Below are positions 5,613 to 60,519 of a stretch of 64,000 nucleotides of DNA, piece after piece. This DNA is from Leptonemataceae bacterium. Its GTDB lineage: Bacteria > Spirochaetota > Leptospiria > Leptospirales > Leptonemataceae. A program made the translations under genes and the position numbers. The notes beneath the pieces are model-generated. The model was given only the letters and a program-made list of their open reading frames with translations. It ran no database searches and was not told the origin of the DNA. Position 1 is the stretch's first letter. Each line of letters opens with the position of its first letter. The stretch is taken from the NCBI GenBank assembly GCA_965227295.1, contig OZ245742.1, forward strand, positions 2,400,001-2,464,000. The letters are read 5' to 3'.

Positions 5613-5652
5613 GCGGTTTAGTCCGGAGCGCCGAACATCGAGTTCGCCTTTT

Positions 5653-13427: not shown

Positions 13428-14156
13428 CTACTTCTCATCTTTCCGTATATTCTTCCCCGTCTCACAGTACGCTTGCAACGGGCACTCCCCACACTTCGGA
13501 TTTCGCGGCCGGCAAACCAACGCGGACAGATCGATGATGGCCAGGTTCAAGGCCTGGCAGTGTTTCGAGTCCACGAACCGATCGGCCAGATGAAGGATGT
13601 CCCTGTCGCGGCGCGACTCGGCGTGATGAGGCAGGCCGTGCACGCGCGCGATGAAGCGCGCCACGTTCGCGTCCACGGCCGCCACACGCTCGTTCCACAG
13701 GCGAGTGCGAATCATGGCCCCGGAGTACGGTCCGACGCCTGGAATCGCTTCGAGATCGTCGCCGCGCCGCGGTCCGCCGGGTCCGTAGTGATCGCGGAGG
13801 TAGTGCAGGGTTTCGCGCATTTGTTTGCCGCGCCAGTGGAGGCCCAGGGGTTTCAGCATGCGTTCCACGCGCGACCAGGGAATCTCCAGGGCCTCGCCTG
13901 GCGTGCGAAACGATTCGGTGAAGTCCGCGTAGACCCGTGCGGCCTGATCGGCCCGGGTACGTCGGAGCATCATTTCGGCCATCAATAAATGAAACCAGTT
14001 GCCGGTCTTGCGCCAGGGATAGTCGCGTCCGGCCTCGCGAAACCATTGCAGCAATCGTCGGCGCAGCTCCCGCAGATGCGGGGTGATGTCTCGTTTTACG
14101 GCCGCCGTCGCGTTGCGGGGTGACGTTTTTTTGTTTCCATCTTCGCGGCGTCCCAT
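13428..14156 (-). CDS. HhH-GPD DNA glycosylase with [4Fe-4S] FCL motif, Mig (T:G mismatch)-like
   Basis: RDYPWR, EMMLRRT (MutY has LQQT), IPGVGPY, VDANV, CRPRNPKCGECPLQAYC; no C-terminal MutT-like domain. Confidence 0.8.
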   Translation of the reverse strand: MGRREDGNKKTSPRNATAAVKRDITPHLRELRRRLLQWFREAGRDYPWRKTGNWFHLLMAEMMLRRTRADQAARVYADFTESFRTPGEALEIPWSRVERMLKPLGLHWRGKQMRETLHYLRDHYGPGGPRRGDDLEAIPGVGPYSGAMIRTRLWNERVAAVDANVARFIARVHGLPHHAESRRDRDILHLADRFVDSKHCQALNLAIIDLSALVCRPRNPKCGECPLQAYCETGKNIRKDEK

Positions 14157-16025: not shown

Positions 16026-17096
16026 GCCGCTGCTCTTCGCTTTGCCCTTCGAGCCCTTTGCGGATTTTTCACTAACGTTACGCGAAGATGACTTAACCTG
16101 GCCGCGGGTTTGCAACGGGGTCTTTTGCACGTTTTCGCGACCGATGAGGGCTTCCATGACGCCGAAGGCCACGGCCTGGGCCACGGGCACCGCCACGGCG
16201 TTGCCGAACTGTTTGTAGGCCTGGGTGTCCGAGACGACGATGTCGTAGTCCTCGGGAAAACCCATGAGCCGCGCGCATTCTCGCGGCGTGAGCCGACGGG
16301 GGTTGCTGTTCTTCACGGGGACGAGAATCTCGGAGCCGTCTTTGTAATACCGTGCGGAAAGCGTGCGGGCGATGCCGTCCGGTTCCACCATGCCGAAGCC
16401 GAAACCGTGGCCGGCCTTGCGGTGTTTTTCTTTGTAGGCCTGCAAGTAATTCCAGAGCCGGTCGCTGAGGACGTAGCGCTCGTCGAACTTTTCTTCGAGG
16501 ATGTCGGCGATGCGCGGTTCACGTTCCCGGGCGAGTTCCGGAAAACGAAACGTGCGGGCCGCGGCCTTGTCGCGAAAACCGACCAGGAAGATGCGCTCAC
16601 GATTCTGAGGCAGAACCTTCGCCGCATTCAGGATACGGTAGTCCATGTAGTAGCCGAGTTCGTCGGCCAGGGTCCGCCGGATGATTTCAAAGGTGCGTCC
16701 GCCGTCATGATAGACGAGGTTCTTGACGTTCTCCAGAACGAACGCCTTCGGTCGCCGGTCGCGTAAAATGCGCGCGACTTCAAAGAAGAGCGTGCCCTGG
16801 GTTTTGTCGAGGAAGCCGTGGGCCCGGCCGAGGGCGTTCTTCTTGCTCACGCCCGCAATCGAAAAGGCCTGGCAGGGGAAACCCGCCGTAAGCACGTCGA
16901 AGTTCGGGATGTCCGTCGAGGCGACCTCCCGGATGTCCCCGGTGGGTTCGTCCCCGAAGTTGGCCGAGTAGGTCTTCCGGGCGAACCGGTCCCACTCGCT
17001 GGAAAATACGCACTGGAGTCCCAGGGATTCGAAGGCTAACCGGAAGCCGCCGATCCCGGCAAAAAGGTCTATAAAACGCATACCGCCGTTCCGCAT
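16002..17096 (-). CDS. dcm: DNA (cytosine-5)-methyltransferase, Dcm/M.EcoRII-like
   Basis: FAGIGG, GFPCQ, GVSKKNALGRAHGF, ENV, QNRERIF, TLSARYYKDGSEIL, RRLTPRECARLMGF, YKQFGNAV; start 17096 or 17081. Confidence 0.92.
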   Translation of the reverse strand: MRNGGMRFIDLFAGIGGFRLAFESLGLQCVFSSEWDRFARKTYSANFGDEPTGDIREVASTDIPNFDVLTAGFPCQAFSIAGVSKKNALGRAHGFLDKTQGTLFFEVARILRDRRPKAFVLENVKNLVYHDGGRTFEIIRRTLADELGYYMDYRILNAAKVLPQNRERIFLVGFRDKAAARTFRFPELAREREPRIADILEEKFDERYVLSDRLWNYLQAYKEKHRKAGHGFGFGMVEPDGIARTLSARYYKDGSEILVPVKNSNPRRLTPRECARLMGFPEDYDIVVSDTQAYKQFGNAVAVPVAQAVAFGVMEALIGRENVQKTPLQTRGQVKSSSRNVSEKSAKGSKGKAKSSGSRRRKIA

Positions 17097-17249
17097 CGTC
17101 ACTGTAGTATTAGAATCGGCCGGTTTCGCGATTTGCCCGCGCAAATTCCTGCGACCGCCGCCGCCGATTAAGATAGAGTCGTCCGTCATTCGGTTCATGT
17201 CATCCTCCCAACGCGCACACTATAGCACGGGGGTGTGACATTATTTGTT

Positions 17250-17435: not shown

Positions 17436-19978
17436 TTAAAGTCCCAGCTCGTTCATCTGGTATCTCAGCCGGTTGCGCTTCATGCCCAGCATTTCCGCGG
17501 CCTTCGTTTTGTTGCCGTTCGTCCGCCGCAGCGCGTCCTCGATCAGCGCCCGGGAGTAGGATTGCAGGGCCTCGTCGAAGTTCGGTGGTGTCGCGTTCAT
17601 GTCAGGGGCGGCCGCGGTGAATACCGCGGGCCGGCCGGAACTCAGGGCTGCGACGGGCGCCACGGCGGAGCGGGATGCCTCGCGGACGGACGCCGGCAGA
17701 TGCTCCACGCCGATGTGAGCCGGGTCCGCGCGGTCGGCGGCCAGGGCCTGCATCAACACGTTTTCGAGTTCACGGATGTTGCCCGGCCAGCGGTAGGTCA
17801 GCAGCGCGGCGAGGGCTCGATCGTCGGGTTCCACGGGAGCGAGCCCCGTTTCTTCGCAGAAGTTCTTCAGAATAAAATCCACGAGCACGGGAATGTCCCG
17901 GCTCCGTTCCCGGAGGGGTGGTACATGGACGTGCAGGACGTTGATGCGGTACAGCAAATCCTCGCGGAACGTGCCCGCCTGGACCATGGTCGGCAGGTCG
18001 CGGTTGGTGGCGAAGATGAAACGACAGTCCGCCGGGCGCATCTCGGTCCCGCCGACGGGATGATACTGTCGCTCCTGTAAGAGGCGCAGGAGCTTCGCCT
18101 GCATTTCCAGCGGCAGCTCGCCGACCTCGTCGAAGAAGAGCGATCCGCCCGCGGCCTCGGCGACGCGGCCGGCCCGGGCGTTGCGCGCGTCGGTGAAAGC
18201 GCCCTTCACGTGGCCGAAGATCTCATCTTCCCAGAGCGTCGCCGGCACGGCGGCGCAGTTCACCGCGACGAACGGTCCGGCATCCCGGGGCTGTGTTTGC
18301 GCTTCCTGATCATCGTCGTTCGCCGTGTTGTCGTTGGAAAAGTGGATGAGCCGGGCGACCAGTTCCTTGCCGGTTCCGGTTTCTCCGGTAATGAGGATGG
18401 GCCGCTCGAACTCAGCGTAACGATGGGTGCGGCGAATCACTTCGCGCATGGCCGGGCTGGCCGTTACCAGGTTGCGGTCGCCGACGGAATGGATGATGGT
18501 TTGAGACTCGTCGTCTCCTGCGATGATGCGTTCGATCTCGTCGATGTGCTCGCTGTACTCGGTGTAGCGGTCCCGGGCGTTCTTCAGTACCCGCAACATG
18601 CCGGCGAAGGATTTCGAGAGGGCTACGAGCTCATCCCCTTCGATGTGCGTTGTCTCGTCCGCGACGTCCGGCTGATTGCGGCGTAGTTGGCCGAGGAGGC
18701 GCCGCAGGGGACGCGTCACCGTTTCCCGAAAGAGCAACGGGAATACCACTAACATGAACACGGTTGATGCCAGTACGGCCAGGCAGTACTCCAGGGCGAC
18801 GGCGTGGATCCGCGCGCGATAGTTGTCGTAGCTGAAGCCGTACTCCCGGCTGTCGTCGCGAAAAAAGACGAACGGCCGGCCGGCGATCCAGCGATACGAG
18901 CGTTGGAGTTTTTGAATGGGCGGTGCGCCCACGGCCGGCGGCAGAGTGGATGCCGTTTCCGATAGGCCGGCGTCCGCGGTCCAGAGTTCGGCCAGGGACT
19001 CCCCGGCCTGAACGGCATCGCTCCGTTCGAAGACGACGCGCCCGCGGTCGGTGTTGTTGCCGGGAAGTTCGATGACATATTCCAGGATCGACGGGGCCAG
19101 ACGTTCCAGGGGAACGGCCGCTTCCAGCAACTGCCCGGCGACGTGCACGTCTTCCAGGCGTTCGCGGTTGTACTGCTGTTCTTCACGCTGAATGGCCCGC
19201 ATGCCCAGGATCGAGAGCAGGGACATGATGGCCACGAGGGAGATGCCCACCAGCTTTACAATGAACGAAGACGGTTCGCTGGAAGTGTTTAAGTAGAACA
19301 AAACGTAGAGCGAAAAGATCAGCAGGAAGCCGGAGTTCTCCAGGAGGTTCACCGTTTGTCGGGAGCCGAAGCCCAGGGTCAGCAATACAAACAAGATCGG
19401 GATGGCGAGTTCGAGCAACGTCAGTACAAAGAAGGCGAGCGCCGGGCGATTGAAGCGCGAGTTCCCCGAACCGCGCAGGGCCTGGCGGCCGAGTACGATC
19501 AGCCCCCAGACAAAAGTGATCGCAACCAACGCCGGAATGTACGCGGAGTAGTAGGTACTCTCGTAGTTGTGATTCTGAAAGTTGTAGCGTACTTCCGCGA
19601 GACTTGCGCGCACGGCGTAGTCGCCGAAGGCCAGCACCGCGGCCGCGGCGGTGACGAAGAGGACGATGCGCGCCTCCCGCGGCCAGGCCGGCGACGGCAA
19701 GCGGTAGGCGAACTGGATTTTGAAGATCATGCCGAACAGGACGGCGGCCGCGGCATACCAGCCGGCGGTGCCCCAGGGAGCGTTGATGGAAAAACCAAAG
19801 AGCGAGCCCAGGTTGTAGACGCTGAAGATCAAAAAGAACCCGGCGAGCCAGTAGGTGCGCGTGGTCTTCTTCGGCAGGGACAGCAGATAGAATGCGCTCA
19901 GCAGGGTGAACAGCGTCGGCGTTAACCGGCCGAACGAGCTGGCAGTGAGTGAGATCGCGTCGACAATGAGGAACATAT
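17436..19978 (-). CDS. Membrane-bound sigma-54-dependent enhancer-binding protein (multi-TM sensor, HAMP-like, AAA+, HTH)
   Basis: About 8 N-terminal TMs plus a further TM; GETGTGKE, GAFTDA, FFDEVGE, FREDLLYR, WPGNIRELEN, Fis-type HTH GNKTKAAEMLG; start approximate. Confidence 0.9.
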
Positions 19979-20103
19979 GCCGCCAGTTTTTTGCCGGTGC
20001 CCGAATCTCTGCCGCCAAAAATTCGTCGGTCAGTCTTTTTCTACATACAGGTGCGTCGCGTTGATGCGGTGCGTGTCTGTTTTTGCGCCAGGGATTGGAA
20101 GGG

Positions 20104-20338: not shown

Positions 20339-21172
20339 ATGAATTTGAAGAAACTCAGTTTGATGCTTGCGGCGTTCTTAATAGCCGGAAGCGCCGTGAG
20401 CCTCAGCGCCGCGGATTATACCATCTTCGTACACGGCCGCTCGGGCCAGAACCACTGCGGTACCGGGACGAGTGACAACAACAACTACTGGGGCTCCGCG
20501 AAGAACATCAATACTTCGACCACCAAATACTTCGTCGGTTACGACGGATCCTCGGACCCGCGGACGTGGGGGAATTGCCGCGCACAATCCAACATCAACA
20601 CGGTCTTCAATCAACGTTGCCGCGGTTCGAACAACTGCAAAGTGATCTGCCACAGCGCCGGTTGCTACGCCGTCGAGTACTTCCTCGATAAGACCTCCAC
20701 AAACTTCAACATCGACTTCGTGATGGCCTCGTCCAGCGCTGCCGGCGGATCGGAGCTGGCCAACCTGGCGTTCTGGGCCTGGGGCGGAATGGACAACGCC
20801 CTCAAGACCGGCAACGCCCGCGGTTCCTACAATCACAACGACATGAAAGGCGTCGGCATCTGGGCCATTGCCGGTTATCGTTCCCAGTGGTACGTGGACT
20901 GGATGCTGCCGGGTAAAGACGACGGCGCCGTGGCCCTGCACAGCACCTGCGGTCATCGTACCACCGGCTCGCACAGCAAGTGCAACCAGTCCCGCTACAG
21001 CTCGCACTTCATCTGGAGCGGCGGTTACAACAACAACAACGGCTGGAGCGGCGATCGCAAGGCTTACAACAAGACCCACACGGGCGACGGCAGTAACTCC
21101 ATCAACACGGCCATGAAGAAAGAATGGAACGACTGTAAGTCGACGACCATCAACGGCTTCCGCTGCAAATAA
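20339..21172 (+). CDS. Secreted Cys/Asn-rich alpha/beta-hydrolase (lipase/esterase-like)
   Basis: Signal peptide; IFVHG oxyanion motif, CHSAG nucleophile elbow, GGSELA, DDGAV; 10 Cys. Confidence 0.75.
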   Translation: MNLKKLSLMLAAFLIAGSAVSLSAADYTIFVHGRSGQNHCGTGTSDNNNYWGSAKNINTSTTKYFVGYDGSSDPRTWGNCRAQSNINTVFNQRCRGSNNCKVICHSAGCYAVEYFLDKTSTNFNIDFVMASSSAAGGSELANLAFWAWGGMDNALKTGNARGSYNHNDMKGVGIWAIAGYRSQWYVDWMLPGKDDGAVALHSTCGHRTTGSHSKCNQSRYSSHFIWSGGYNNNNGWSGDRKAYNKTHTGDGSNSINTAMKKEWNDCKSTTINGFRCK

Positions 21173-21224
21173 GCGCGAGCCCGACGCCGCCTCCGGCGCC
21201 GCCCTCATTATGAACCACTCACCG

Positions 21225-21257
21225 GCCGCGGCTCACCGGAGTCGCGGCTTTTTCTTT
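21225..21257 (+). terminator. Rho-independent terminator
   Basis: GCCGCGGCTC-ACCG-GAGTCGCGGC hairpin followed by TTTTTCTTT. Confidence 0.75.
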
Positions 21258-21472: not shown

Positions 21473-21653
21473 AAAACAGATTACTTGATGTTTTTTAGTA
21501 AAGGTCGCTCCGCCGGAACTAAAAAATACGGCAATCTGCTTTAAGGAAATAGTGATTAAAGACTAGAACGGGTAGATCACAGGTCAAATCACAACAGAGG
21601 TAACCACCATGAACGCAACGGCCTCCCGACACATCAAGTTAAACACCCCCGCT

Positions 21654-22025
21654 ATGGAATCCGCAAAATCCATTTTGATCATCGACGACTCCGCCTCCAT
21701 CCGCAAACTCGTTAGCATCGCTCTCGGCGGGCGGGGCTACGAACTCATTGAAAGCGTGGACGGTGCCGAAGGTCTCGACCTCGTGCGCAGTCGGAGCGTG
21801 GACCTGATCATCTGCGACGTCAACATGCCGAACCTGGACGGTATCTCGTTCCTGCAGAAAATTCGCGAAATCGACGCGCACCGTTTTACGCCGGTCATCA
21901 TGCTGACTACGGAATCCCAGGAAGCGCTGAAAGAGCAGGGCCATGCGGCCGGCGCCCGCGCCTGGATCGTCAAACCGTTTCAGGCGGAGCAGCTCGTGGC
22001 TGCAGTCGAACGTCTTCTGGTGTGA
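21654..22025 (+). CDS. cheY: Chemotaxis response regulator CheY
   Basis: IIDDS, CDVNMP, MLTTES, WIVKPF; first gene of the che operon; start may be 21609. Confidence 0.9.
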   Translation: MESAKSILIIDDSASIRKLVSIALGGRGYELIESVDGAEGLDLVRSRSVDLIICDVNMPNLDGISFLQKIREIDAHRFTPVIMLTTESQEALKEQGHAAGARAWIVKPFQAEQLVAAVERLLV

Positions 22026-22138: not shown

Positions 22139-22540
22139 ATGAGTTTCCTGGAGATAGAAGATCGGAGCACGGGCGAGCGTTTTGTTCGTGTTCGCGGTGC
22201 CATGGTCATACGCCATGCTGCAAATCTGGCGGAAGAGTGGAAGACTGCCCGGGTCGGAGTCGATAATCTAATCGTCGATCTTTCCGGTGTCAGCGAGCTC
22301 GATAGCTCGGGTGTGCAGTTGCTCGTCGCTTTGAAAAAAGAATCGCTGGCTTCGGGAACATCGTTCAAACTCGTGCAGCACTCTCCGGCGGTTCTTTCCG
22401 TTTTCGCGCTCTACGGACTCGCCGCGTTTTTCGGCGACCGCATTCGACTCAAGTCGGGTGAGCGTGATGCCTACGGTTTTCTCTACGGGCTGCGACGTGG
22501 CAATTATGGATCTATCCGAAGCGAGAGACGTTTTTCTTGA
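22139..22540 (+). CDS. STAS domain (anti-anti-sigma-like) protein
   Basis: VDLSGVSELDSSGVQLL motif; lies between cheY and cheA. Confidence 0.8.
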   Translation: MSFLEIEDRSTGERFVRVRGAMVIRHAANLAEEWKTARVGVDNLIVDLSGVSELDSSGVQLLVALKKESLASGTSFKLVQHSPAVLSVFALYGLAAFFGDRIRLKSGERDAYGFLYGLRRGNYGSIRSERRFS

Positions 22541-24593
22541 TGAATGTGCCGAGTTGTTGGAGCGCATGGAGCAATGCCTGCTCGCCCTGGACGAAGATCC
22601 TGGTGACGACGAGGCCGGCCGCGCGCTCTTTCGGGCCGTGCATACCATCAAAGGTTCAGCCGGCGTCTTCGGCTTCAGCCACATCGAAGACTTCACCCAC
22701 GACCTGGAAAACCTCCTCGATCTTGTGCGCTCCGGCTCCGTTCCCGTGGAACCGGAACTGGTGCGCCTCTTTCTGGATTGCCGCGATCACATCGGCGTGC
22801 TGCTCGGTCTCATAGATGCTTCCGGTGTCGTGCATGCGGCGGGCACCGAGACCGCGGCCCGGGGCACCGTACTCATGCAACGCGTACGCGAGCGGCTCCC
22901 CGCTACGAAAGAAGATTCTTCTATAGAAGAGAGCGCAGGAAAGACCGCGGACAGCGCCGCGCATGCCGCCGCCGAAACGCACTGGCGCCTGAGCCTGGAA
23001 TTTCAACCGGACGTGTTTCGCCACGGCCTGGATCCGTTGCCGTTCGTTCGTTATCTGCGTGAAATCGGCACCATCCGCGACGTCATTACACACACTGATC
23101 GTGTGCCGACCCTGGAGCAGCTCGATCCCGAAAGCTGCGTGCTGGACTTCGAGATCCTGTTTACCGGCGCCGTCACCGAAGCACAGCTCCGGGAGGCCTT
23201 TGAGTTCGTTGAGCACGATTGCAAGATTCGCATTGAACGTGTTACGGAAGACGCGGTGAAGGATGAGGCCGCCGCCCCGAAGTCAGCCGGCGCAAGCCGC
23301 GTGCCGATCAGCGGCGACTCGTTCAGCGCCCTCGCGGCGGCCGGGCATCGGGAGAGTCGTTCCTTTCGCGTGGACGCGCGCAAGCTGGATCACCTGGTCA
23401 ACCTGGTCGGGGAGTTGGTCATCTCCACGGCGCACCTGGCCCAGGTCGCGGACTTCGACGAGAACTCCGGCGCGGCAAGCATTACGGATCAAGTATTGAA
23501 GCTCGTCGGCGAAATTCGTGACGGCGCCTTCGGCCTGCGCATGGTGCCCATCGGCGGCATCTTCAGTCGCTTTCGCCGTGCCGTGCACGATCTCTCCGCG
23601 GAGTTGCAGAAATCCGTCCGCCTGGAGACTCACGGCGGCGACACCGAACTGGATCGCAACATCGTCGAACGCCTCACCGATCCGCTCATGCACATCGTTC
23701 GTAATGCCGCGGACCACGGCCTGGAATCTCCCGCCGAACGCGCGCAGGCCGGCAAGGACCCCGAGGGTCGCATCACCCTGCACGCCTTCGGTGAGACCGG
23801 TGAGATTGTGATCGAAGTCAAGGACGACGGCCGCGGTCTCGACGCCGCCGCCATTCGACGCAAAGCCGAGAGCCAGGGGCTGGTCGCTCCGGAGCAGGAA
23901 CTCACGCGTGAAGAAGTGCTGCGTCTGATCTTTCATCCCGGCATGTCCACGGCGGCCAACGTTACGAACATTTCCGGCCGCGGCGTGGGCATGGACGTGG
24001 TGTTGCGGAACATCGAAGCGTTGCGCGGTCGGGTGGAGCTGGACTCCGAACCCGGCAAAGGGACCACTGTGCGTATCATCCTGCCGCTGACCCTGGCCAT
24101 CATCGACGGTTTTCTGGTGCGTGCCGGCGAAAGTCACTTCGTGATTCCCCTGGACATGGTGATGGAGTGCGTGGAGTTCGAAGAGGCCGGTACGGCCGCA
24201 CGCGGCGTGGTGAACCTGCGCGAAGAGGTGCTGCCCTTCGTTCGATTGACTTCGTTCTTCGAACTCACACCGCCGCCGCCGGGGGCGCGGACAAGCCTGG
24301 TCGTGGTCCGCCACGGCGCGCGCCGGGCCGGCCTGGTCGTCGAAGACCTGCTCGGCGAGTTTCAATCCGTCATTAAATCTCTGGGACCGCTCTTCGAGAA
24401 CGTGCGCGGCCTGAGCGGTTCTACGATCCTGGGCAACGGTGCCATCGCCCTTGTCCTCGACGTACCGACGTTGCTGGATCTGCTCGAAAACGAAGACGCG
24501 TCTTCGATGCGCGGCGGCGTGGATCTCTACAGTGTGCGCGAGGGATTGCTACGGGAACTGGAAGCGCCGGATGATTCGACACGGGGAGACTGA
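22506..24593 (+). CDS. cheA: Chemotaxis histidine kinase CheA
   Basis: Hpt [61 protein letters not shown]-terminal CheW domain. Confidence 0.96.
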
Positions 24594-24597
24594 GGCC

Positions 24598-27500
24598 ATG
24601 CGACGACTGAGTGTTACGCAACGAAAGTTAGTGATGAGCGCGCTGTGTGCGGCGGTGCTGGTCTGCGCTTTTACCGTGTCGGCCGACGTCACGGCGAACT
24701 GGGGCTACACCGGCGCGAATGGACCGCGGCACTGGGCGAAACTGAGCGACGAGTTCTCCGTATGCGCGAACGGACGGCGCCAGTCACCGATCGATTTACC
24801 GGAAGCGTCCGCGGGCACGTCCGCGGGTTCCGCGCCCATGCTTGCATTTACGTACGAAGCAAGCGATCTGGAAATCATCAACACCGGCCACACCATCCAG
24901 GCGAACGTGCCGCCGGGCAACAGCCTGCGCGTCGGTGATGATGTGTACGAACTCGTGCAGTTTCATTTTCACAGTCCGTCCGAGAACCAGGTCGACGGCC
25001 GCTCGTATCCCCTGGAGATGCACCTCGTCCATCGTAACGAGGACGGGGACCTGGCCGTGGTCGGCGTGCTGTTCGAAGACGGCCCGGCCAATGCGGAACT
25101 CGCCGGGATCTGGGAGGACCTGCCGGAGGATGCCGGGGCTACCGTCGAAGTATCGCTGAACCCGGAGCAGCTTCTGCCGGCGGAGCGTTCGTTCTACCGG
25201 TTCGGCGGTTCGCTGACCACGCCGCCGTGCAGCGAAGGCGTAGACTGGTTTGTCCTGGCGGAACCGCGGACGATTTCCACCGGGCAAGCCCGGGCCTTCG
25301 TCGATTTGATCGGCGAAAACGCACGTCCGCCGCAGCCGCTCTTCGGCCGCACGATCACTTTCGTGAGCGACGGCACGGCCCGCCGTCTCGGTGAGGCGGA
25401 GCTGACACCGCAGGCCCCCGGACAGGATGCTCCGCATGAGCCCGCGGACGGCGAGGGCGATTGGGGCCTGTACGCCTTTATCGCCGGCGTCCTTATTTTT
25501 GTTGCAATCTTTCTTTTTTTGATGATGCGTAAATCTGGAGACTCTATGAACTTTCTTGATCGTTTTACTCTACGTACGAAGATTCTCGGCCTCGTAATGC
25601 TGCTCATATTGATGAACGCCGCGGTAGCCGCTTACGTCATGCTGACGCTGAACAGCCTGGGCCGAGAACTCGTGGAAATCGCTGAGCGGGACCTGCCGCT
25701 GAGTGATGCCGTCGCCGCGGTGACGGAGAAGCAGCTGGAACAGGCTGTGACCTTTGAACGTACCCTGCGTTTTACGGATCGTCCGGCGCAGTTTCGCGAA
25801 AACGAACAGGCGTTCCTCAAACTCAACCGCCAGGTGGAAAAGGGCCTCGCTGAGACGCGCCAGTCCGTGGATGGTTTTTTGAACGGGCGATTGTCCTCCC
25901 GGGCCCGAACAGTTTTTGAAGATGCGTCCGTGCGCCTGGCGGAGATTGCCGAACTGCACGAGGACTACGGCGATCTCGGCACGGCGATGCTCGCGGCCGG
26001 CGGGGAGGCAGGTACGGCGGACGACCGACGTGTGGAAGAACTACAAACTACTGTTGACAAAATGTTAACGTCCCTCCAGCGCGATCTGGCGAAGTTTACC
26101 GAGGCCACCGCCCGGGACGCCGAGGAACACGAGCGAACCGCCTTTATCGTGGTGAGCGTTCTCTCCGTGGCGGTCTTGGTCCTCGGGCTGCTGCTGGGCC
26201 TGGGCATTGCACGGAACGTACTGCGCCAGCTCGGTGGAGATCCGGCGCTGCTGGCGACCATCGCGGAGCGAGTCGCCGGGGGCGAGTACGACGCCGCCGC
26301 GGAAGTAGTCGCTCAGGATAGTAGCGATGACGGAGACAACGAGGCCCGGGGGCTCATGGGATCCATGGTAACCATGGCCGCCAATCTCAAGGCGAACGTC
26401 GGTGAGATGCTGCGCGTCCAGGTGGCCCTCGATAACTCTTCGACGAACGTAATGATCTGCGATCCCGAGTTCACCATCATGTACATTAACAACGCCATGC
26501 GCAGTTTGTTCCAGCGGGCCGAGGCGGACATTCGCAAAGACCTGCCGCAGTTTTCGGCGGACTCCGTGCTCGGTTCGTCCATAGATCGATTCCACAAGAA
26601 CGTGGCGCACCAGCGCGGGGTCCTGAACAATCTGGCCGGCACGCATCGCACGACCATTCAGCTCGGCGGGCTCACTGTCGATTTTACTGTCAACGCGATC
26701 GTGGACTCCGACGGCAAGAAGTACGGCTTTGTCATGGAATGGAGGGACCGCACGGACGAGGTCGCCGTGGAACGCGAAGTGGAAGCCATTGTTACCTCCG
26801 CTTCGCGCGGGGATTTCACCGGTCGCATCGACATGCAGGGCAAACACGGATTCTTTGAGCGTCTCAGTGAAGGCATCAACGCGCTCATGGAAACCAGCGA
26901 TACCGGCCTAAGTGAAGTTGTGCGCGTGTTAACAGCCATGGAGGCCGGCAATCTTACGGATCGCATCGACAACGAGTACGACGGGACCTTCGGTCGTCTC
27001 AAGGACGCCTCCAATAATACCCAGGAGCGTCTCTCCGACGTAATCGTCAACGTGCGTTCGAATGCCGAGGCCCTGGCCGGCGCCTCGGAGGAAGTGAGCG
27101 CGACGGCGCAGTCCATGAGCCAGGGGGCCTCCGAGCAGGCGGCCAGCGTGGAAGAGACCGGCGCGTCCCTCGAAGAGATGACGGCCAGCATCACGCAAAA
27201 CGCGCAGAACGCGAAGGCGACGGAGGACATTGCCCTCAAGACCGCCACGTCCAGCGAGGAGGGCGGCAAGGCCGTCGCCGAAACCGTGGAAGCCATGCGC
27301 CGCATTGCGGAGAAGATCTCCATTATTGAAGAAATCGCGTATCAAACGAATCTCCTGGCGCTGAACGCCGCCATTGAAGCGGCCCGGGCCGGGGAACACG
27401 GCAAGGGTTTTGCGGTCGTAGCTACCGAAGTTCGTAAGTTAGCCGAGCGTTCCCAGGTGGCGGCGCAGGAAATCGGCGGCCTGGCTTCGAACAGCGTGGA

Positions 27501-27891
27501 CATTGCCGAACGCGCGGGCACGTTGTTGGATGAGATCGTGCCGAGCATTCGCAAGACCGCGGACCTGGTGCAGGAGATTACCGCGGCGTCCCAGGAACAG
27601 AACACGAACGTCGAACAGATCAATGCGGCGGTAGGCCAACTCGACAAGCTGGCCCAGAGCAACGCCTCTTCCGCCGAAGAACTGGCAAGTACCGCGGAAG
27701 AACTTTCCGGCCAGGCCCAGCAGTTGCAGCACATGATGGAGTTTTTCAAACTCAAAGCGGAAGCGGCCGGTAACGCCGGCACGATTCCCGGCTCTCCCGC
27801 CACGCCGGCGGCGAAACCGGAACCGAAGCCTGCGCCGCGCCTGGCTCCGACGCCGCCGGAATTTCAGGAGGACGATTTTGAGCGCTTCTGA
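24598..27891 (+). CDS. Chemoreceptor with N-terminal alpha-carbonic anhydrase, periplasmic helical domain, HAMP, Aer2-type PAS and MCP signalling domain
   Basis: Signal peptide; CA motifs [41 protein letters not shown]; 3 TMs; [55 protein letters not shown]-terminal DFERF. Confidence 0.92.
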
Positions 27892-28462
27892 GGCCGCGGA
27901 AACCCGGCGCGGCCGGGAAGAACAGTTTCTCACGTTTCACCTGGGCGACGAGGTCTACGGCATTGAAGTCCTGCGCGTGAAAGAGATTCTCCAGTACTCC
28001 GGCATCACGAAGGTGCCGCGGACGCCGCCGTACATCCAGGGTGTCATCAATCTCCGGGGCAGCGTGGTGCCGGTGGTGGATTTGCTGCACTTGTTTGCGG
28101 AAGCGTCCGTGAGCGTGGGACGCAAGACCTGTGTGATCATTGTGGAGGTTCGCTCCCAGGCGCAGGAGGGCGGCATTGAAGCGGGCATCATCGTGGACGC
28201 CGTGGACCAGGTACTGAACGTCAACACGACTTCGATCGAAGCGGCCCCCGGTTTTGGAACGAAGGCGGGTCCGAAGTTTATTCGCGGCATGGCGCCGCGC
28301 AACGCCGCCAGCGACGCCGCCGAATCCTCCGGGGACGAGGCGGGCGGCGACGCCGACCGACACAAGGACGAGGGCTTCGTGATTTTGCTGGACCTGGACA
28401 AAATCCTGGTGCCGGAACATCTGCAGGCCCTGGGCGATGCGAACGCCGTGTCGCAGGACTAA
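27878..28462 (+). CDS. cheW: Chemotaxis coupling protein CheW
   Basis: [33 protein letters not shown]. Confidence 0.92.
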
Positions 28463-28484: not shown

Positions 28485-29327
28485 ATGATGACGCAGTCCC
28501 CCGCCACGTCTCCCGCGGCCGAGCTCAGCGACGCCGACTTTTCCCTGTTCCGGACGCTCATGGCCGTCGAGGCCGGGGTTCACCTCGGAGACAACAAGAA
28601 GACCCTGGTCGTTTCCCGCCTCGGGCGTCGCGTGCGGGACCTGGCCGGAGGGAACTTCCGTGCGTACCACTCGCTCTTAAAGGATGATCCCGTGGAACTG
28701 CGCTTCGCCGTGGACGTGCTGACCACGAACGAAACGTTTTTCTTTCGTGAGCCGCAGCACTTTCAGTTCCTGGGACGGGAGATCCTGGCGCGGGCCTCCG
28801 GCAAACTGCGCATCTGGTCGGCGGCGTGTTCCACCGGCGAAGAACCCTACAGCATCGCCCTGGTCTGCGCGGACCGCGGTGTGTCGGCGCAGATCCTGGC
28901 CACGGATGTGAACGCCTCGGTCCTGGGCAAGGGCCGAGCGGCCTTGTATCCCCTGGAACGGAGCAGGGAGTTGCCCGCGTACTACTTAAAGAAATTCGGC
29001 CTGCGCGGCGTGCGTTCCATGGGACACTACTTCACGTTCACGCCGGAGGTTCGTCGCATGGTAACCTTTGATCGAATGAACCTTGTGGCCGGTGCGCTGC
29101 CGGGTCAGGAATTTGACTGTATCTTTCTCAGAAACGTAATGATCTACTTCTCCCGGGAGACCAAGGAGCAGGTACTGCGCCGCCTGGCAGGGTGTTTGAA
29201 GATCGGCGGTTACCTGATGATCGGTCACTCGGAGACCCTGCACGGCCTCGGCGCGAACACCGGTAATCGCAAGGCTTTCGGCTTCCAACTGGTGCGGCCG
29301 GCGATCTACCAACGGGTTGTGGAATGA
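28485..29327 (+). CDS. cheR: Chemotaxis methyltransferase CheR
   Basis: TTNETFFFRE, IWSAACSTGEEPYS, FLRNVMIYF, GHSE. Confidence 0.95.
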   Translation: MMTQSPATSPAAELSDADFSLFRTLMAVEAGVHLGDNKKTLVVSRLGRRVRDLAGGNFRAYHSLLKDDPVELRFAVDVLTTNETFFFREPQHFQFLGREILARASGKLRIWSAACSTGEEPYSIALVCADRGVSAQILATDVNASVLGKGRAALYPLERSRELPAYYLKKFGLRGVRSMGHYFTFTPEVRRMVTFDRMNLVAGALPGQEFDCIFLRNVMIYFSRETKEQVLRRLAGCLKIGGYLMIGHSETLHGLGANTGNRKAFGFQLVRPAIYQRVVE

Positions 29328-29848
29328 ATCATACGAGGCCGGAGTTCATAGTCGAAATCTTTTTGCAGCCCGGGGAGTTCCTCTGGGGCGACGAGAGCAA
29401 TCGCATTCGGACCCTCCTCGGCTCGTGCGTGAGCCTGACTTTCCATCATCCGAACTTAAACATCGGCGGGATGTGCCATTTTATGCTTCCTTCCCGGGAG
29501 CGAAAGCTGGATGAAGGCCTTTCGGGGCGTTACGCCGACGAGTGTCTGCTTTTGTTTATTGAAGCCATTCAACGCAGCGGGACGCGACCCCGGGACTACG
29601 AGGTCAAGATGTTCGGCGGCGGGAACATGTTCCCGACCCTGGCGGAACAGAAGGCCGGCGTCATCGGTGAGCGCAACGTAAACACGGCGCGCGATCTCAT
29701 TGCCCGGCACGGCCTCAAGCTGGTGGCCGAAGACGTCGGCGGCGTGGTACACCGGCGACTGCTCTTCGACGTATGGAGCGGGGACGTCTGGCTCAAACGC
29801 CTGGATCCGGTGCGCGAATCCCCGGCAGCGGTGGCACGGCCGTCTTAA
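29324..29848 (+). CDS. cheD: Chemoreceptor glutamine deamidase CheD
   Basis: TLLGSCV, GGMCHFMLP, KMFGGGNMF, IGERN, EDVGG. Confidence 0.93.
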   Translation: MNHTRPEFIVEIFLQPGEFLWGDESNRIRTLLGSCVSLTFHHPNLNIGGMCHFMLPSRERKLDEGLSGRYADECLLLFIEAIQRSGTRPRDYEVKMFGGGNMFPTLAEQKAGVIGERNVNTARDLIARHGLKLVAEDVGGVVHRRLLFDVWSGDVWLKRLDPVRESPAAVARPS

Positions 29849-29871: not shown

Positions 29872-30972
29872 ATGGCAGATGAAGGCGGCATACGAGTCCT
29901 GGTGGTGGACGATTCGGCCGTGGTCCGCCGAACCATGACCGAAATTCTCCAGGACGACCCCGGCATTCGCAGCATCGAAACCGCGGCGGATCCCATCTTT
30001 GCCCGACAGAAGATGCAGGTCTTTCGCCCGGACGTCATGATCCTGGACATCGAGATGCCGCGCATGGACGGCCTCACGTTCTTAAAGCAGATCATGTCCG
30101 AGTCGCCGCTACCGGTGCTCATCTGTTCCACGCTCACCCAGGCCGGCGCCCCGGCGACGCTCGAAGCCATGCGCTACGGCGCCCTGGGGGTGATCGCGAA
30201 GCCCGGCCTGGGGTTGAAAGGTTATCTCGAAGATGAGGCCGATCGGCTGCGTCGTTCCGTGCGCCAGGCCGCCGGGGTCCGACTGAAGTCGCGTTCCGGC
30301 ACGGGTTCGCTGAAGGCGGAAGCCACCGCGGCGCGCGCCTTCGAGGCAAGCGCGGCAAAGAAGACGCCGGCAGTGAGCGGGCGCAGCGGATACGATTTGA
30401 TTGCCATGGGTACGTCGGCGGGCGGCACCACGGCCCTGGAGGTGGTGCTGAGCGCCCTACCGGTACAGTGCCCGGGCATCGTGGTGGTGCAGCACATGCC
30501 GGCGAAGTTCACCGCGGCCTTCGCGGACCGCCTGAACGCGCACAGCCCGCTGGATGTCAGCGAAGCGAAGGACGGCGACGAGGTCCGGCCGGGTACGGCG
30601 CTCATTGCTCCCGGGGATCGGCACATGGTACTGCGCTCATCTTCGGCAGGTAAAAGTTACTCGGTGCAAATTAAGGACGGTCCGCCGATCAATCATCATC
30701 GTCCGTCGGTGGACGTGTTGTTTCGTTCCGTCGCGGTTACGGCGGGGCCACGGGCGTTGGGTGTGATCATGACGGGCATGGGCGACGACGGCGCCGCGGG
30801 TCTGGAAGAGATGCGCGACGCCGGCGCGTATACGATCGGTCAGGACGAGGCCTCGTGCACGGTCTACGGCATGCCGCGGGCCGCGTTCGAACGCGGGGCG
30901 GTGATGCAACAGGTGGCGCTGACTTCGATTCCGGCGGCGATTCTGCGCGCGTTGTATGCGGCGAAGGGCTGA
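29872..30972 (+). CDS. cheB: Chemotaxis methylesterase CheB (REC + esterase)
   Basis: VVDDS, LDIEMP; GTSAGG, VQHMP, HRPSVDVLF, TGMGDDGA, YGMP. Confidence 0.95.
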   Translation: MADEGGIRVLVVDDSAVVRRTMTEILQDDPGIRSIETAADPIFARQKMQVFRPDVMILDIEMPRMDGLTFLKQIMSESPLPVLICSTLTQAGAPATLEAMRYGALGVIAKPGLGLKGYLEDEADRLRRSVRQAAGVRLKSRSGTGSLKAEATAARAFEASAAKKTPAVSGRSGYDLIAMGTSAGGTTALEVVLSALPVQCPGIVVVQHMPAKFTAAFADRLNAHSPLDVSEAKDGDEVRPGTALIAPGDRHMVLRSSSAGKSYSVQIKDGPPINHHRPSVDVLFRSVAVTAGPRALGVIMTGMGDDGAAGLEEMRDAGAYTIGQDEASCTVYGMPRAAFERGAVMQQVALTSIPAAILRALYAAKG

Positions 30973-34595: not shown

Positions 34596-34754
34596 GTTTA
34601 GTGGAAGGTAGCCAACAGTGATCTCAGAGAGCAAGCAGGGTTCCTTGCAAACATCCCAGGCCCGTAAGCTCTAATTAAATTCTAGTACGGGCTACCGTAT
34701 AAAGAAACACATTAAAACTTGATCAAATTTCGCCGGGATGTTAGCTCTAGTATC

Positions 34755-36440
34755 ATGTCAAGGGAAGGTCGCCGGGCGGCCGTTCGTTATACGATCCTCT
34801 ATTTAGTTGCGGCCTTCGCATGGATCATTATCGGAGACCAGGTGCTGGAGCACCGGGTGGGCGCTCATGAGAATTCCAGCCTCAATGTCACGAGCTTTCA
34901 AACTCTGAAAGGCGGCCTCTTCGTGCTCTTAACGGGGATCGGCCTGTTCGTACTGTTTCACCGCGCCCTGCATCGGGAAAGTCAGCTCCAGAGGACCATG
35001 CGTCTGCTCCTGGAAAACGCGAACGATTTGATCTTTCGTTATCGTCTGCAACCGGACCGCGGCTTCGAGTACGTCAGCCCGGCGTGCCTCGCCATTACAG
35101 GCTACACCCAGGAAGAGTATTATGCCGATCCGGGACTCGGAGACAGGCTCATTCATCCGGACGACCGCGGTCTTCTGAAAAATTTAGAAGACAACCTGGA
35201 GCGGCCCGTGGTCTTGCGCTGGATTCGTAAGGACGGTTCCATTGTGTTTACCGAGCAGGTCAGCCACGGTGTGCGGGATGCCGACGGAGCACTGGTCGCC
35301 ATTGAAGGCGTCGCCCGGGATGTGAGCGAACGGATTCAACAATCTTACGAACTGCACGAAAAGGAAATGCGTTTCCATGTGGCGGTCAGTAATTTTCCGG
35401 ACCCCTTTCTGATCTACGATGGTTCCCGGCGCATCATTTTCGCCAACGCGGCTCGTGAGAATCTCAGCGAGACCGTTATCGAAGATCTCCTCTATCAGCG
35501 TGACGAGGAACTCTACGGCATGGAAAATGTGCAGGACTATGTCATCCTCCTGGAAGATGCTCTGCGCAGCCGTTCCATTCACGAAGCCGGGGTGACGGTA
35601 ACGTGGAACGATCGTCGGCATCGTCTGCATACCAGGGTTGTGCCCATCATCGAACGTGCACCGGAAAGGCGGGTGCGCGAACTTTTGGTCATCCTGCGGG
35701 ATATGACTGAGATGGAAATTATGCAGGCCCAGTTGGACCAGGCCGGTCGCATGGCCACACTGGGGGAACTGGCGGCGAGCGTGGTGCACGAGATCAATCA
35801 ACCTCTGTCCGTCATCAAAATGGCCGCGAACTTACTCGCCAACGAAGAACGGCCGAGCCCGGAGTTTGTAAAGGAACGCACTGAAAAAATAACGAATAGT
35901 GTCCGTCGCCTGGAGTACTTTACAATGCACCTCCGTCAATTCGGGCGCGTGGATACACAGCAACTGAAGAGCATGGATCTCGGCGAATGCGTGCGTTCCT
36001 CAATCCTGCTGGTCGCCGAGCGCATGCATTCTCACGCAATCACCGTACGCAATACTCTGCCGGAACGTACGTTTTTCGTTCACGGCGATCCGTTTCGTCT
36101 TGAGCAGGTGTTCGTAAACATTCTGCTCAACGCGCACGATGCCATCGAGGACAGCGAGGTCTCGCGGCGGGAAATCATCGTCTCCGGCGGCATCCAGGCC
36201 GGCGGCTTCATTGCCGTTCGCATTTTTAACTCGGGGCCGCCCATCACGCCGGAAGTTCACCGCCGGCTCTTCGAACCGTTCTTTACGACGAAAACGGAAG
36301 GCCGGGGCATGGGACTCGGCCTGTCCATCAGCTTTCGCATTGTGCAGGCTCACGGCGGTACGATCCGCGCGCTCGAACAGGATGAAGGCGCAACCTTTAT
36401 TGTGAGTCTGCCGCAAATTCTCGACACCGGAGGAACATAG
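34755..36440 (+). CDS. PAS-domain sensor histidine kinase
   Basis: 2 TMs, two PAS domains, H-box VHEINQP, N-box ILLNAHDA, FEPFFTTK, GMGLGL. Confidence 0.92.
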   Translation: MSREGRRAAVRYTILYLVAAFAWIIIGDQVLEHRVGAHENSSLNVTSFQTLKGGLFVLLTGIGLFVLFHRALHRESQLQRTMRLLLENANDLIFRYRLQPDRGFEYVSPACLAITGYTQEEYYADPGLGDRLIHPDDRGLLKNLEDNLERPVVLRWIRKDGSIVFTEQVSHGVRDADGALVAIEGVARDVSERIQQSYELHEKEMRFHVAVSNFPDPFLIYDGSRRIIFANAARENLSETVIEDLLYQRDEELYGMENVQDYVILLEDALRSRSIHEAGVTVTWNDRRHRLHTRVVPIIERAPERRVRELLVILRDMTEMEIMQAQLDQAGRMATLGELAASVVHEINQPLSVIKMAANLLANEERPSPEFVKERTEKITNSVRRLEYFTMHLRQFGRVDTQQLKSMDLGECVRSSILLVAERMHSHAITVRNTLPERTFFVHGDPFRLEQVFVNILLNAHDAIEDSEVSRREIIVSGGIQAGGFIAVRIFNSGPPITPEVHRRLFEPFFTTKTEGRGMGLGLSISFRIVQAHGGTIRALEQDEGATFIVSLPQILDTGGT

Positions 36441-36443
36441 AAT

Positions 36444-37193
36444 ATGGAATATGACACAATTTTAGTTGTAGATGACGAAGAAGACATCTGTTCCGAGTTG
36501 AATATTTTTCTTTCGAAACAAAAGTTCCGGGTGCTGACCGCGCTGAACGGAGAAGATGCCATGGAGCTCTTTCGCATCTATTCACCGGCCGTGACGGTTA
36601 CCGACTATCGCATGCCGAAGATGGACGGCCTGGAACTCCTGCAGCAGATCAAGGGCACGGCACCGCAGGCCGAGGTCATTTTCATCTCCGGTCACGCGGA
36701 CATGCGGACCGCGGTCCAGGCGATCCAGAAGCATGCCTTTGATTTTCTGTCGAAGCCTATCGATCTCGATGAACTGCACGCGAAAGTGAAGGCCGCCCTT
36801 GAGCGGGTCCGCAATAATGAACTGAATCATTCCACGTATCGCGGTACGGCGCTCACTCACGAGCGCTACGAAGTCCCCCACGACGCTTCCATTCTCTTTC
36901 TGCTGACGCCTCTCGACAGCAACCAGCGCCAGCGCACCATGCAGGAGTTTCAGAAACTCACGGAGCAACGCAAGCTGGGGCCGGCCGTGATCGTTTCCCT
37001 GGGAAGCGTCGAGTACATAAACAATGTGGGCCTGAATACGTTGCTCGATATTCAAAAAGAGTTGCAAAACGACGGCAAACGCGTGTTGCTCACTCAGCTC
37101 AGCCCGCGGGTCTATCAGTATCTCAAGACACTCGGCTACCATGAAACCTTCCAGATCACGCAAAACGTGGAGAGCGCTCTGGCCTTACTGTAA
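36444..37193 (+). CDS. Response regulator with C-terminal STAS domain
   Basis: VVDDE, TDYRMP, ISGH, KP; C-terminal LGSVEYINNVGL..VLLTQLSPRV..L..LG STAS-like fold. Confidence 0.85.
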   Translation: MEYDTILVVDDEEDICSELNIFLSKQKFRVLTALNGEDAMELFRIYSPAVTVTDYRMPKMDGLELLQQIKGTAPQAEVIFISGHADMRTAVQAIQKHAFDFLSKPIDLDELHAKVKAALERVRNNELNHSTYRGTALTHERYEVPHDASILFLLTPLDSNQRQRTMQEFQKLTEQRKLGPAVIVSLGSVEYINNVGLNTLLDIQKELQNDGKRVLLTQLSPRVYQYLKTLGYHETFQITQNVESALALL

Positions 37194-39681: not shown

Positions 39682-39737
39682 CGGGAAATTGCAGTCCGTG
39701 CAAGCCGGGCGATCAAGGAAAAAATTATCGTATTGAA

Positions 39738-60504: not shown

Positions 60505-60519
60505 GGAATCTGACATAAA

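Follow-up and report, generated by a model that had tools for sequence, protein, structure and literature searches.

The stretch of DNA analysed here ('the window': 64,000 nucleotides of contig OZ245742.1 of a Leptonemataceae bacterium, assembly GCA_965227295.1, forward-strand positions 2,400,001 to 2,464,000, numbered below from its first letter) contains a che operon with the gene order cheY–STAS–cheA–CA-receptor–cheW–cheR–cheD–cheB. The fourth of these genes is our subject: its product joins a carbonic anhydrase (CA) of the alpha class to a chemoreceptor (methyl-accepting chemotaxis protein, MCP). That one gene unites the two is confirmed, as an initial annotation made from the sequence had claimed: there is a single stop-free frame of 1097 amino acids (aa) plus stop, with its own Shine–Dalgarno-like element, and we refer to the product as P0001 (Table 1). 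The mechanical open reading frame (ORF) call reaches further upstream, to a GTG at 24439; we prefer the ATG at 24598, which is a credible start, because it lies five bases past the cheA stop codon (24591–24593) and follows the GGGGAG element. The domain architecture described in the initial annotation was upheld by Pfam, by sequence search of the PDB, by hydropathy and by AlphaFold2 models, and the two Pfam families whose co-occurrence it had proposed looking for are matched above their cutoffs in this one protein: Carb_anhydrase (PF00194) at residues 41–254 (E 2.8e-42, 145.5 bits against a cutoff of 27) and MCPsignal (PF00015) at residues 877–1018 (E 1.2e-36, 126.6 bits against 34.6).

Table 1. 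The CA-receptor gene, its predicted parts and the other genes of its operon (window coordinates)
Feature	Position	Strand	Basis or remark
Shine–Dalgarno-like GGGGAG	24583–24588	+	9 nt before ATG 24598; by reading the sequence
Whole CA-receptor ORF (P0001)	24598–27891	+	ORF call, translation, Pfam
Predicted signal peptide, residues 1–29	24598–24684	+	hydropathy peak 11–29; basic n-region (RR, RK), hydrophobic core, VSA before Asp30
Alpha-CA domain, residues 34–254	24697–25359	+	Pfam, PDB sequence matches, residue alignment
Acidic, Pro-rich flexible linker, residues 255–287 (~33–36 residues)	25360–25458	+	AlphaFold2 pLDDT <50 at 266–287
Predicted transmembrane segment TM1, about residues 288–311, outside to inside	25459–25530	+	hydropathy 2.84; model helix 289–312
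T7 homopolymer in last TM1 codons	25514–25520	+	longest run in the ORF
Internal Shine–Dalgarno-like GGAGA (25537–25541) and ATG 25546 (Met317)	25537–25548	+	P0168 starts at the same position
Predicted TM2, about residues 329–351, inside to outside	25582–25650	+	hydropathy; model helix 325–391 continues into helix 1 of the ligand-binding domain
Predicted periplasmic four-helix-bundle ligand-binding domain, residues 352–514	25651–26139	+	AlphaFold2 model; homology to the corresponding domains of 37 other CA-carrying proteins
Predicted TM3, about residues 515–538	26140–26211	+	hydropathy 2.99; model helix 473–544
HAMP-like segment with acidic insert, residues 539–601	26212–26400	+	homologous segment of P0297 matches PF00672
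Aer2-type PAS, residues 602–722	26401–26763	+	Pfam PAS_8/PAS_4 at 606–722; gapless alignment to 3vol, 4hi4
Di-HAMP, residues 723–830	26764–27087	+	723–814 align to the 3vol HAMP pair; Pfam HAMP_2 at 750–809
Kinase-control (MCP signalling) module, residues 831–1060, 34H-like	27088–27777	+	Pfam MCPsignal; Tsr alignment
C-terminal pentapeptide DFERF	27874–27888	+	sequence; P0168 ends DFQRF
cheY-like response regulator, first operon gene	21609–22025	+	Pfam Response_reg, E 2.5e-27
STAS (RsbV-like anti-sigma antagonist)	22139–22540	+	Pfam STAS_2 and STAS, E 8.5e-15
cheA	22458–24593	+	Pfam Hpt, H-kinase_dim, HATPase_c, CheW; start uncertain, longest ORF overlaps the STAS gene
cheW	27878–28462	+	Pfam CheW, E 7e-32
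cheR	28485–29327	+	Pfam CheR, CheR_N
cheD	29324–29848	+	Pfam CheD
cheB	29872–30972	+	Pfam Response_reg, CheB_methylest

The N-terminal segment of the protein reads as a cleavable Sec-type signal peptide; a lipoprotein signal was ruled out by eye, as the residues preceding Cys23 are unlike a lipobox. In the PDB search, residues 34–253 were most like the bacterial alpha-CAs 4xz5 and 5hpj (E about 1e-61). Each of the active-site residues picked out by the initial annotation could be placed: the zinc ligands are His123, His125 and His142 (codons at 24964, 24970 and 25021), the proton-shuttle histidine of the GHTIQ motif is His98, the threonine of LTTPP is Thr207, and the disulphide would be formed by Cys56 and Cys211, at positions invariant in all 150 of the CAs that we aligned. 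The gate residues are Thr207 and Glu129, equivalents of Thr199 and Glu106 in the numbering of human CA II. All the catalytic and structural residues are present (PDB alignment, positions checked); the domain is apparently catalytically complete, and is predicted to be active.

A Kyte–Doolittle scan, from which (together with charge) the signal peptide and the transmembrane (TM) segments were predicted, gave four hydrophobic segments, at residues 11–29, 291–309, about 329–351 and 515–533. Residues 255–287 are net acidic and proline-rich, the 17-residue basic loop joining TM1 to TM2 (312–328) has a net charge of +3, and TM3 is followed by arginines. Because the basic loop and these arginines fit the positive-inside rule, both the CA and the 352–514 domain are placed in the periplasm. 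The out–in–out–in topology of the initial annotation, with the CA on the same outer side as the ligand-binding domain (LBD), is thus in agreement with hydropathy, charge distribution and the structural model. In an AlphaFold2 model of residues 1–560, the cores of the CA and the LBD were confident, but pTM was only 0.50; with the very low pLDDT of residues 266–287, this indicates that the CA is on a flexible leash and is not confidently docked.

The LBD itself, modelled from residues 345–521 with 41 aligned sequences, comprises four helices (pLDDT 93.7). When the PDB was searched with this model by Foldseek, nothing reached E≤0.001, and the top matches were the four-helix-bundle (4HB) chemoreceptor LBDs 8bsa, 6s33 and 4z9h; the nearest solved folds are the 4HB LBDs of Vc1313, PcaY_PP and Tar, which supports assignment to the fold class only. 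Likewise, an ESM Atlas search with residues 1–600 returned only generic 4HB/HAMP clusters (about 0.90). Conserved ionisable positions, scored over 41 rows, concentrate in two places, helix 1 directly above TM2 and helix 4 shortly ahead of TM3: Glu357 (37/41), Glu363 (33/41), Asp365 (36/41), Glu387 and Arg388 (34/41 each), Arg437 (28/41), His454 (31/41), Glu480 (34/41), Glu509 (31/41) and Glu512 (37/41).

On the cytoplasmic side, the HAMP-like segment after TM3 (about 539–601) has no Pfam score in the window protein at E≤0.01. Beyond it, residues 602–814 align without a gap to the PAS–HAMP chain 3vol of Pseudomonas aeruginosa Aer2 (E 5.7e-58), and the PAS domain keeps His666 at the haem-ligand position, His671, and Trp715 at the O2-stabilising position. 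The haem histidine and the tryptophan correspond to residues 234 and 283 of Aer2, numbers that fit the offset of the 3vol chain. A haem pocket is predicted from the conservation of His666 and Trp715, given the roles in haem ligation and O2 stabilisation described for these residues of Aer2 in passages of PMC10107281. The same passages define the Aer2-type core as the last haem-PAS domain, the di-HAMP and the kinase-control module. The best NCBIfam model was the Vibrio Aer2 equivalog, which matched residues 598–1057 only; its 364 bits lie far short of the cutoff, 1200. On this evidence the window protein is Aer2-type in its sensing core and is not an Aer2 orthologue. Its C-terminal DFERF, like the DFQRF of a related receptor (P0168), has the pattern xFxxF, a variation on xWxxF, the pentapeptide by which CheR and CheB are tethered to other receptors; judging from the EWEEF tail of VvAer2 (passages of PMC10107281), it may tether adaptation enzymes.

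Is the fusion peculiar to this one organism? The initial annotation knew of no characterised CA-chemoreceptor fusion and left its novelty unconfirmed; the fusion is no one-off, for at least 56 other proteins have the same topology. Residues 1–330 were searched against 5.8 billion protein clusters, with only proteins of 603–1920 aa taken, and among the best 120 of the 186 matches 55 (query included) carry both PF00194 and PF00015. When the 425 proteins collected in all were compared by BLAST, 57 (again including the query) had both CA and MCP matches, the additions being P0119, with a partial MCP match, and P0210. The source names of the fusions point to several phyla (Spirochaetia, Leptospiraceae, Thermodesulfobacteriota, Desulfobacteraceae, Betaproteobacteria/Sterolibacterium and Magnetoovum), and some fusions are already named 'methyl-accepting chemotaxis protein/carbonic anhydrase' at source. 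All 57 share the order of CA, linker and three hydrophobic segments at similar spacing. Their linkers are of 17–142 aa (median 82), a range that includes the linker of the window protein, of 36; the TM1–TM2 spacing is 32 in the window protein and 20–48 in the family (median 37, centre to centre, 57 proteins), and the TM2–TM3 spacing is 192 against a family median of 195. A hydrophobic segment at the N-terminus was found, at our threshold, in 45 of the 57. The loop after TM1 leads straight to the N-terminal motif of the MCP part (..MNFLN.MKVG..), which the window sequence also fits. A scan of genome contigs gave one unrelated locus (L001), a Gemmatimonadota CA with 40% identity; in its list of ORFs, none as long as a receptor continues from the CA match.

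The enzyme has been well kept throughout this family. When 56 fused and 94 stand-alone CAs were aligned, the zinc ligands were retained in 55, 56 and 56 of the 56 fused domains, the shuttle histidine in 54, and Thr199, Thr200, Glu106, Gln92 and both cysteines in all 56. Because the catalytic residues are conserved across the fused CAs, it seems that enzyme function, and not just the fold, has been retained in the fusions; to judge from these residues, the fused CAs are enzymes under selection rather than dead binding modules. The LBD also shows an association with the enzyme. Residues 317–545 were compared by BLAST with the 425 collected proteins, from which the fused set had been picked on residues 1–330 only, so that LBD type was not a selection criterion. 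There were 41 other proteins with matches, of which 37 carry a CA (33 CA-MCP fusions, P0210, and the CA-bearing truncated ORFs P0060, P0047 and P0038), or 38 of 42 with the query, in a sample biased by having been gathered via the CA or via the PAS/MCP part. The LBD type of the window protein is thus present in 34 of the 56 other fusions.

How often did such fusions arise? A FastTree phylogeny of the 150 CAs placed 46 of the 56 fused domains in one group and nine in a second, with the window CA among stand-alone CAs, though deep support was weak and this last placement had no starred support; the nearest CA to it is the stand-alone P0332, with 55% identity. Alternative topologies were compared by the approximately unbiased (AU) test with 91 rows (the 56 fused CAs and 35 of the 94 stand-alone ones, made up of the 15 nearest and every fourth of the rest); P0060 and P0210 were left out of the CA trees. 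A single clade of all fused CAs was rejected (p-AU 0.0099), from which it appears that fusion or fission happened more than once. Forcing the window CA into the main fused group, which was named after the tree had been seen, cost 46.7 lnL units and was not rejected (p-AU 0.07). The LBD tree was poorly resolved, its pairing of P0001 with P0168 having an SH-aLRT value of 89 and no starred support.

If the fusion as such belongs to a family, the complete architecture does not recur among the proteins that we found. A search with residues 300–830 gave 47 other proteins, none of them with a CA, and an exhaustive phmmer search of 1.84 billion representatives yielded no other full-length alignment among its best 150 matches, the longest collinear match to a fusion being to P0063 (query residues 19–605). 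On sequence criteria, the window protein is the only one of the proteins found that combines a CA with an intact haem-type Aer2 PAS domain. The closest approach to it is P0060, a 797-aa ORF from a metagenome, which in one frame has a CA (52% identity), the same LBD type, a HAMP domain, a related PAS domain and the beginning of a di-HAMP; over 771 columns it is 35% identical to the window protein. P0060 lacks a hydrophobic signal peptide and TM1, and breaks off within the di-HAMP. Its N-terminus, its CA–receptor junction and its C-terminus are rich in arginine, proline and alanine, as if GC-rich DNA had been read out of frame, and we regard it as a relative that is probably error-laden or decaying. 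It shows a linkage of CA and PAS-receptor in a second, distant lineage.

What might an enzyme be doing on the outer face of a chemoreceptor? Without a catalyst, the hydration of CO2 takes tens of seconds. With many CA domains tethered on the periplasmic side of an array of receptors, HCO3- and H+ around the LBDs would keep pace with ambient CO2 within milliseconds; chemosensory adaptation calls for a sub-second time scale. We infer that the LBD senses pH or bicarbonate, and it would do so through the conserved ionisable residues of helices 1 and 4 and between them (Glu357 to Glu512, as listed above). The resulting signal would pass through TM3 and the HAMP-like segment; the haem-PAS domain, which comes after the transmembrane input and before the di-HAMP, would contribute or gate a signal from O2 (or NO/CO), as in Aer2; CheA and CheY would carry the output, either to flagella or by a partner-switching (STAS) route; and CheR, CheD and CheB would bring about adaptation. 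The case for such a three-pass chemoreceptor, with its tethered CA as a signal converter and its haem-PAS as a second, O2-dependent input, seems to us evenly poised. The idea of the initial annotation that the enzyme feeds the receptor draws support from the retention of catalytic residues in 55–56 of the 56 fused CAs and from the 38 of 42 proteins of this LBD type that carry a CA, subject to the bias in sampling already mentioned; its interpretation as a whole is partly supported.

The integrity of the gene turns on the junction between its two halves. Both of the other frames stop at once after the T7 run at the end of TM1 (TGA TGA at 25520–25525, TAA at 25529–25531), and the single-ORF fusion depends on the length of that run: one base more or less would give two genes. 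The junction could have been misassembled, could mark a fusion of recent date or a switch prone to slippage, or could include an internal start that has been kept and also yields a CA-less receptor. Were the true run six or eight, through homopolymer error or slippage, the products would be a membrane-anchored periplasmic CA of ~309–312 aa and a 781-aa Aer2-like receptor, co-transcribed and cooperating in trans, or not at all. A start for the second gene would be at hand, as GGAGA lies 5 nt before the ATG of Met317, and the best match to the receptor part, the CA-less P0168 (781 aa, 53% identity over 781 aa), has its Met1 opposite exactly this residue and aligns from there to the shared DFxRF tail; three further CA-less proteins with the same LBD type start at the same point. 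We nevertheless consider two genes distinctly improbable, since in 56 other proteins, taken from independent assemblies, the frame continues across the junction and TM1, the short loop and the N-terminal MCP motif are all alike, and P0060, too, has CA and receptor in one frame. Several of the fusions keep a methionine there (as in ..MNFLN..), so the methionine and motif at the junction are the family norm and no sign of error, and off-frame stops are to be expected in an AT-rich stretch coding for phenylalanine and leucine. If the T7 run did prove to be an assembly error, the finding at the level of the family would hold, and the locus would contain a co-transcribed pair and no fusion.

Together with these features of the junction, several other observations weigh against a tethered CO2 converter coupled to an O2 sensor. 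The products of a single enzyme diffuse off fast, and the model needs either CA density at the level of the array or a merely kinetic role for the CA. The four LBD matches without a CA (P0168, P0176, P0297 and P0279) are all PAS-containing MCPs, and because they share the LBD type, the LBD can evidently work without a fused CA. The PAS domain of P0060 lacks both the haem histidine and the tryptophan, and CO2 and O2 would therefore not be an obligate pair of inputs. The resemblance to Aer2 put forward in the initial annotation stands for the haem residues of the PAS domain, the di-HAMP and the gapless alignment to 3vol, and falls short elsewhere, in the NCBIfam score already given and in two further respects: by a hand count on the 3vol alignment, the H-beta leucine of Aer2, which is displaced when O2 binds, is here Phe696 (P0168 has leucine), and the signalling module, which aligns to Escherichia coli Tsr at E 3e-49, does so with two symmetric 7-residue gaps, one per arm, so that in this one pairwise alignment it looks like a 34-heptad (34H) kinase-control module and not 36H like those of Aer2 and Tsr. 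Finally, in those species where Aer2 systems have been studied, they have no direct influence on flagellar motility, according to passages of PMC10107281, so output by taxis, for which the initial annotation had proposed assays, is not safe to assume; the operon also has a STAS gene.

Some of these points would suit another view, that the fusion serves only co-localisation or co-expression: the CA would do housekeeping (such as periplasmic equilibration of CO2 and HCO3- for transport or pH homeostasis), the LBD would sense an unrelated ligand, and the receptor would merely anchor the CA at the pole or be co-produced with it. The CA is indeed like an ordinary secreted enzyme, with stand-alone CAs such as P0332 nearest to it by identity; it is on a flexible leash without confident docking; and its LBD type also occurs without a CA. 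We think this unlikely, because repeated fusion of a housekeeping enzyme to chemoreceptors, is hard to explain (the rejection of a single fused clade points to more than one fusion or fission), and because the fusions go preferentially with one LBD type. The CA might instead be the sensor itself, occupancy of its zinc site (by CO2/HCO3-, by inhibitory anions such as HS- or NO3-, or by zinc) altering how it is shaped or how it touches the LBD in a way relayed via TM1, which must adjoin the signalling helices because the TM1–TM2 hairpin is very short throughout the family. Alpha-CAs are rigid enzymes, however, and a disordered CA–TM1 linker varying from 17 to 142 aa would make a poor mechanical coupling. 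Moreover, full catalytic conservation, including the proton shuttle, favours turnover over mere binding; the CA-like domains of the receptor phosphatases RPTP gamma and zeta have lost zinc ligands, and that of RPTP gamma is catalytically dead. A sensing role for the CA itself seems to us very improbable. Signal conversion by the tethered enzyme is the reading that we prefer.

The operon provides a setting for the receptor that is familiar from Aer2 systems. Its gene set resembles those of the Aer2-containing F7 clusters, and the che clusters with Vibrio Aer2 also hold RsbV and RsbU (passages of PMC10107281). Some 4–9 kb 3' of the operon are genes for a PAS histidine kinase and a response regulator–STAS protein (34719–37193, +) and for a response regulator–SpoIIE protein (39738–40892, −), the latter an RsbU-like PP2C phosphatase. 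By analogy with RsbU and RsbV of Vibrio Aer2 systems, the STAS gene in the operon and these downstream genes suggest a partner-switching output, and because Aer2 systems are reported to lack direct flagellar control, taxis should not be assumed. A terminator-like hairpin (21224–21249) lies just 5' of the operon. It is strong, and follows a 277-aa ORF (20339–21172, +) with no Pfam or NCBIfam match. Divergently oriented 5' of the operon is a gene for an 860-aa sigma-54 activator (17436–20018, −), whose first ~515 residues have no Pfam match and which could be a regulator of the operon.

Other features of the window may be mentioned briefly. Flagellar genes are scattered across it, with a FliG-like protein bearing a ~60-residue N-terminal extension (12156–13340, −) far from flhF and a MinD/FlhG-like ATPase (58987–61500, +). 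A C5 cytosine DNA methyltransferase gene (16002–17198, −), for which no restriction enzyme partner was seen, adjoins one for a response regulator–GGDEF–EAL protein (14235–16025), and a short MutY/Nth-like glycosylase is encoded in the same neighbourhood (13428–14156, −). Two large FG-GAP repeat proteins (4083–6029, −, and 37954–39741, −), one of which has a PA14 domain, are probably surface or adhesion proteins. Best NCBIfam matches included the Leptospira-named families Lsa14 adhesin, LvrB and LIC_12097 (56584–56898, −; 34719–36440, +), a hint of a spirochaete-like or related lineage, with a G+C content of about 61%. Rfam and tRNA scans of the window found nothing.

The detection of CO2 by motile bacteria is largely unexplained, and we are aware of no bacterial chemoreceptor dedicated to this gas. 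A family of receptors in which an intact CA is leashed beside an LBD offers a concrete, testable mechanism, which parallels the logic of animal CO2 chemoreception and, if true, would place an enzyme at the input of a chemoreceptor, a rare arrangement. As the only example found with an intact haem-PAS, the window protein could become a system for studying how periplasmic and cytoplasmic inputs are integrated via stacked HAMP domains, and the CA–4HB module could be reused as the front end of a CO2 biosensor. A full-text literature search whose coverage left most subscription journals outside yielded no description of a CA-chemoreceptor fusion or of a comparable CO2 chemoreceptor in bacteria; a Pelobacter genome paper (PMC3543383) that it turned up was set aside, the passages concerned being unrelated. 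Because it is visible in public annotations, the CA-MCP architecture is uncharacterised rather than unseen. It is possible, and we put it forward tentatively, that these proteins form a class of chemoreceptors, hitherto undescribed, in which a gas is sensed via a covalently tethered enzyme, the periplasmic CA turning CO2 into the ion read by the neighbouring four-helix bundle. To this the window receptor would add an Aer2 haem–O2 channel in the same polypeptide, so that one kinase would be informed of the balance between the two respiratory gases.

The logic would have precedents in animals, where enzyme-assisted CO2 sensing involves CA4 on sour-taste cells, CAII with guanylyl cyclase-D, and the CA-like ectodomain of RPTP gamma; there, as proposed here, CA turns CO2 into HCO3- and H+ beside a sensor that reads the product. 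That a periplasmic receptor domain can read H+ or HCO3- is known from pH taxis through Tar and Tsr of E. coli and from the bicarbonate chemotaxis of Helicobacter pylori, though no enzyme is attached to these receptors. In the animal systems, as in PhoPR of Mycobacterium tuberculosis, enzyme and sensor are separate proteins, and none of them is a chemoreceptor. The regulation of PhoPR by CO2 is sensitive to CA inhibition (passages of PMC11895460).

Among systems related by sequence, the secreted bacterial alpha-CAs of known structure (PDB 4xz5, 5hpj, 1kop and 4c3t) match the CA domain at E 1e-57 to 1e-61, with a complete set of active-site residues and both disulphide cysteines; they are free periplasmic or secreted enzymes, whereas the window CA is tethered to a receptor. 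The Aer2 proteins of P. aeruginosa (where Aer2 is also called McpB) and Vibrio share with the window protein a PAS domain with haem histidine and tryptophan, the di-HAMP, the kinase-control module and an xFxxF/xWxxF-like C-terminal tail, and they too are associated with che clusters having CheD, CheR and CheB, joined in Vibrio by RsbV/STAS (passages of PMC10107281); they are, however, soluble and have no periplasmic part, the window protein adding three TM segments, a 4HB LBD and a CA. LiAer2 of Leptospira interrogans is, like the window protein, a membrane-embedded Aer2-type receptor, but it is described as having three PAS domains, with no report of a CA (passages of PMC10107281). Further parallels are the uncharacterised CA-MCP fusions (such as P0063, P0079, P0069, P0070 and P0210), which have the same succession of signal peptide, CA, linker, TM1, loop, TM2, 4HB LBD, TM3, HAMP and MCP module, retain the catalytic residues, and in most cases show 60–73% identity in the kinase module. 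The window CA does not clearly group with theirs, none of the 56 has a PAS domain, and only P0062 has a HAMP_2 array.

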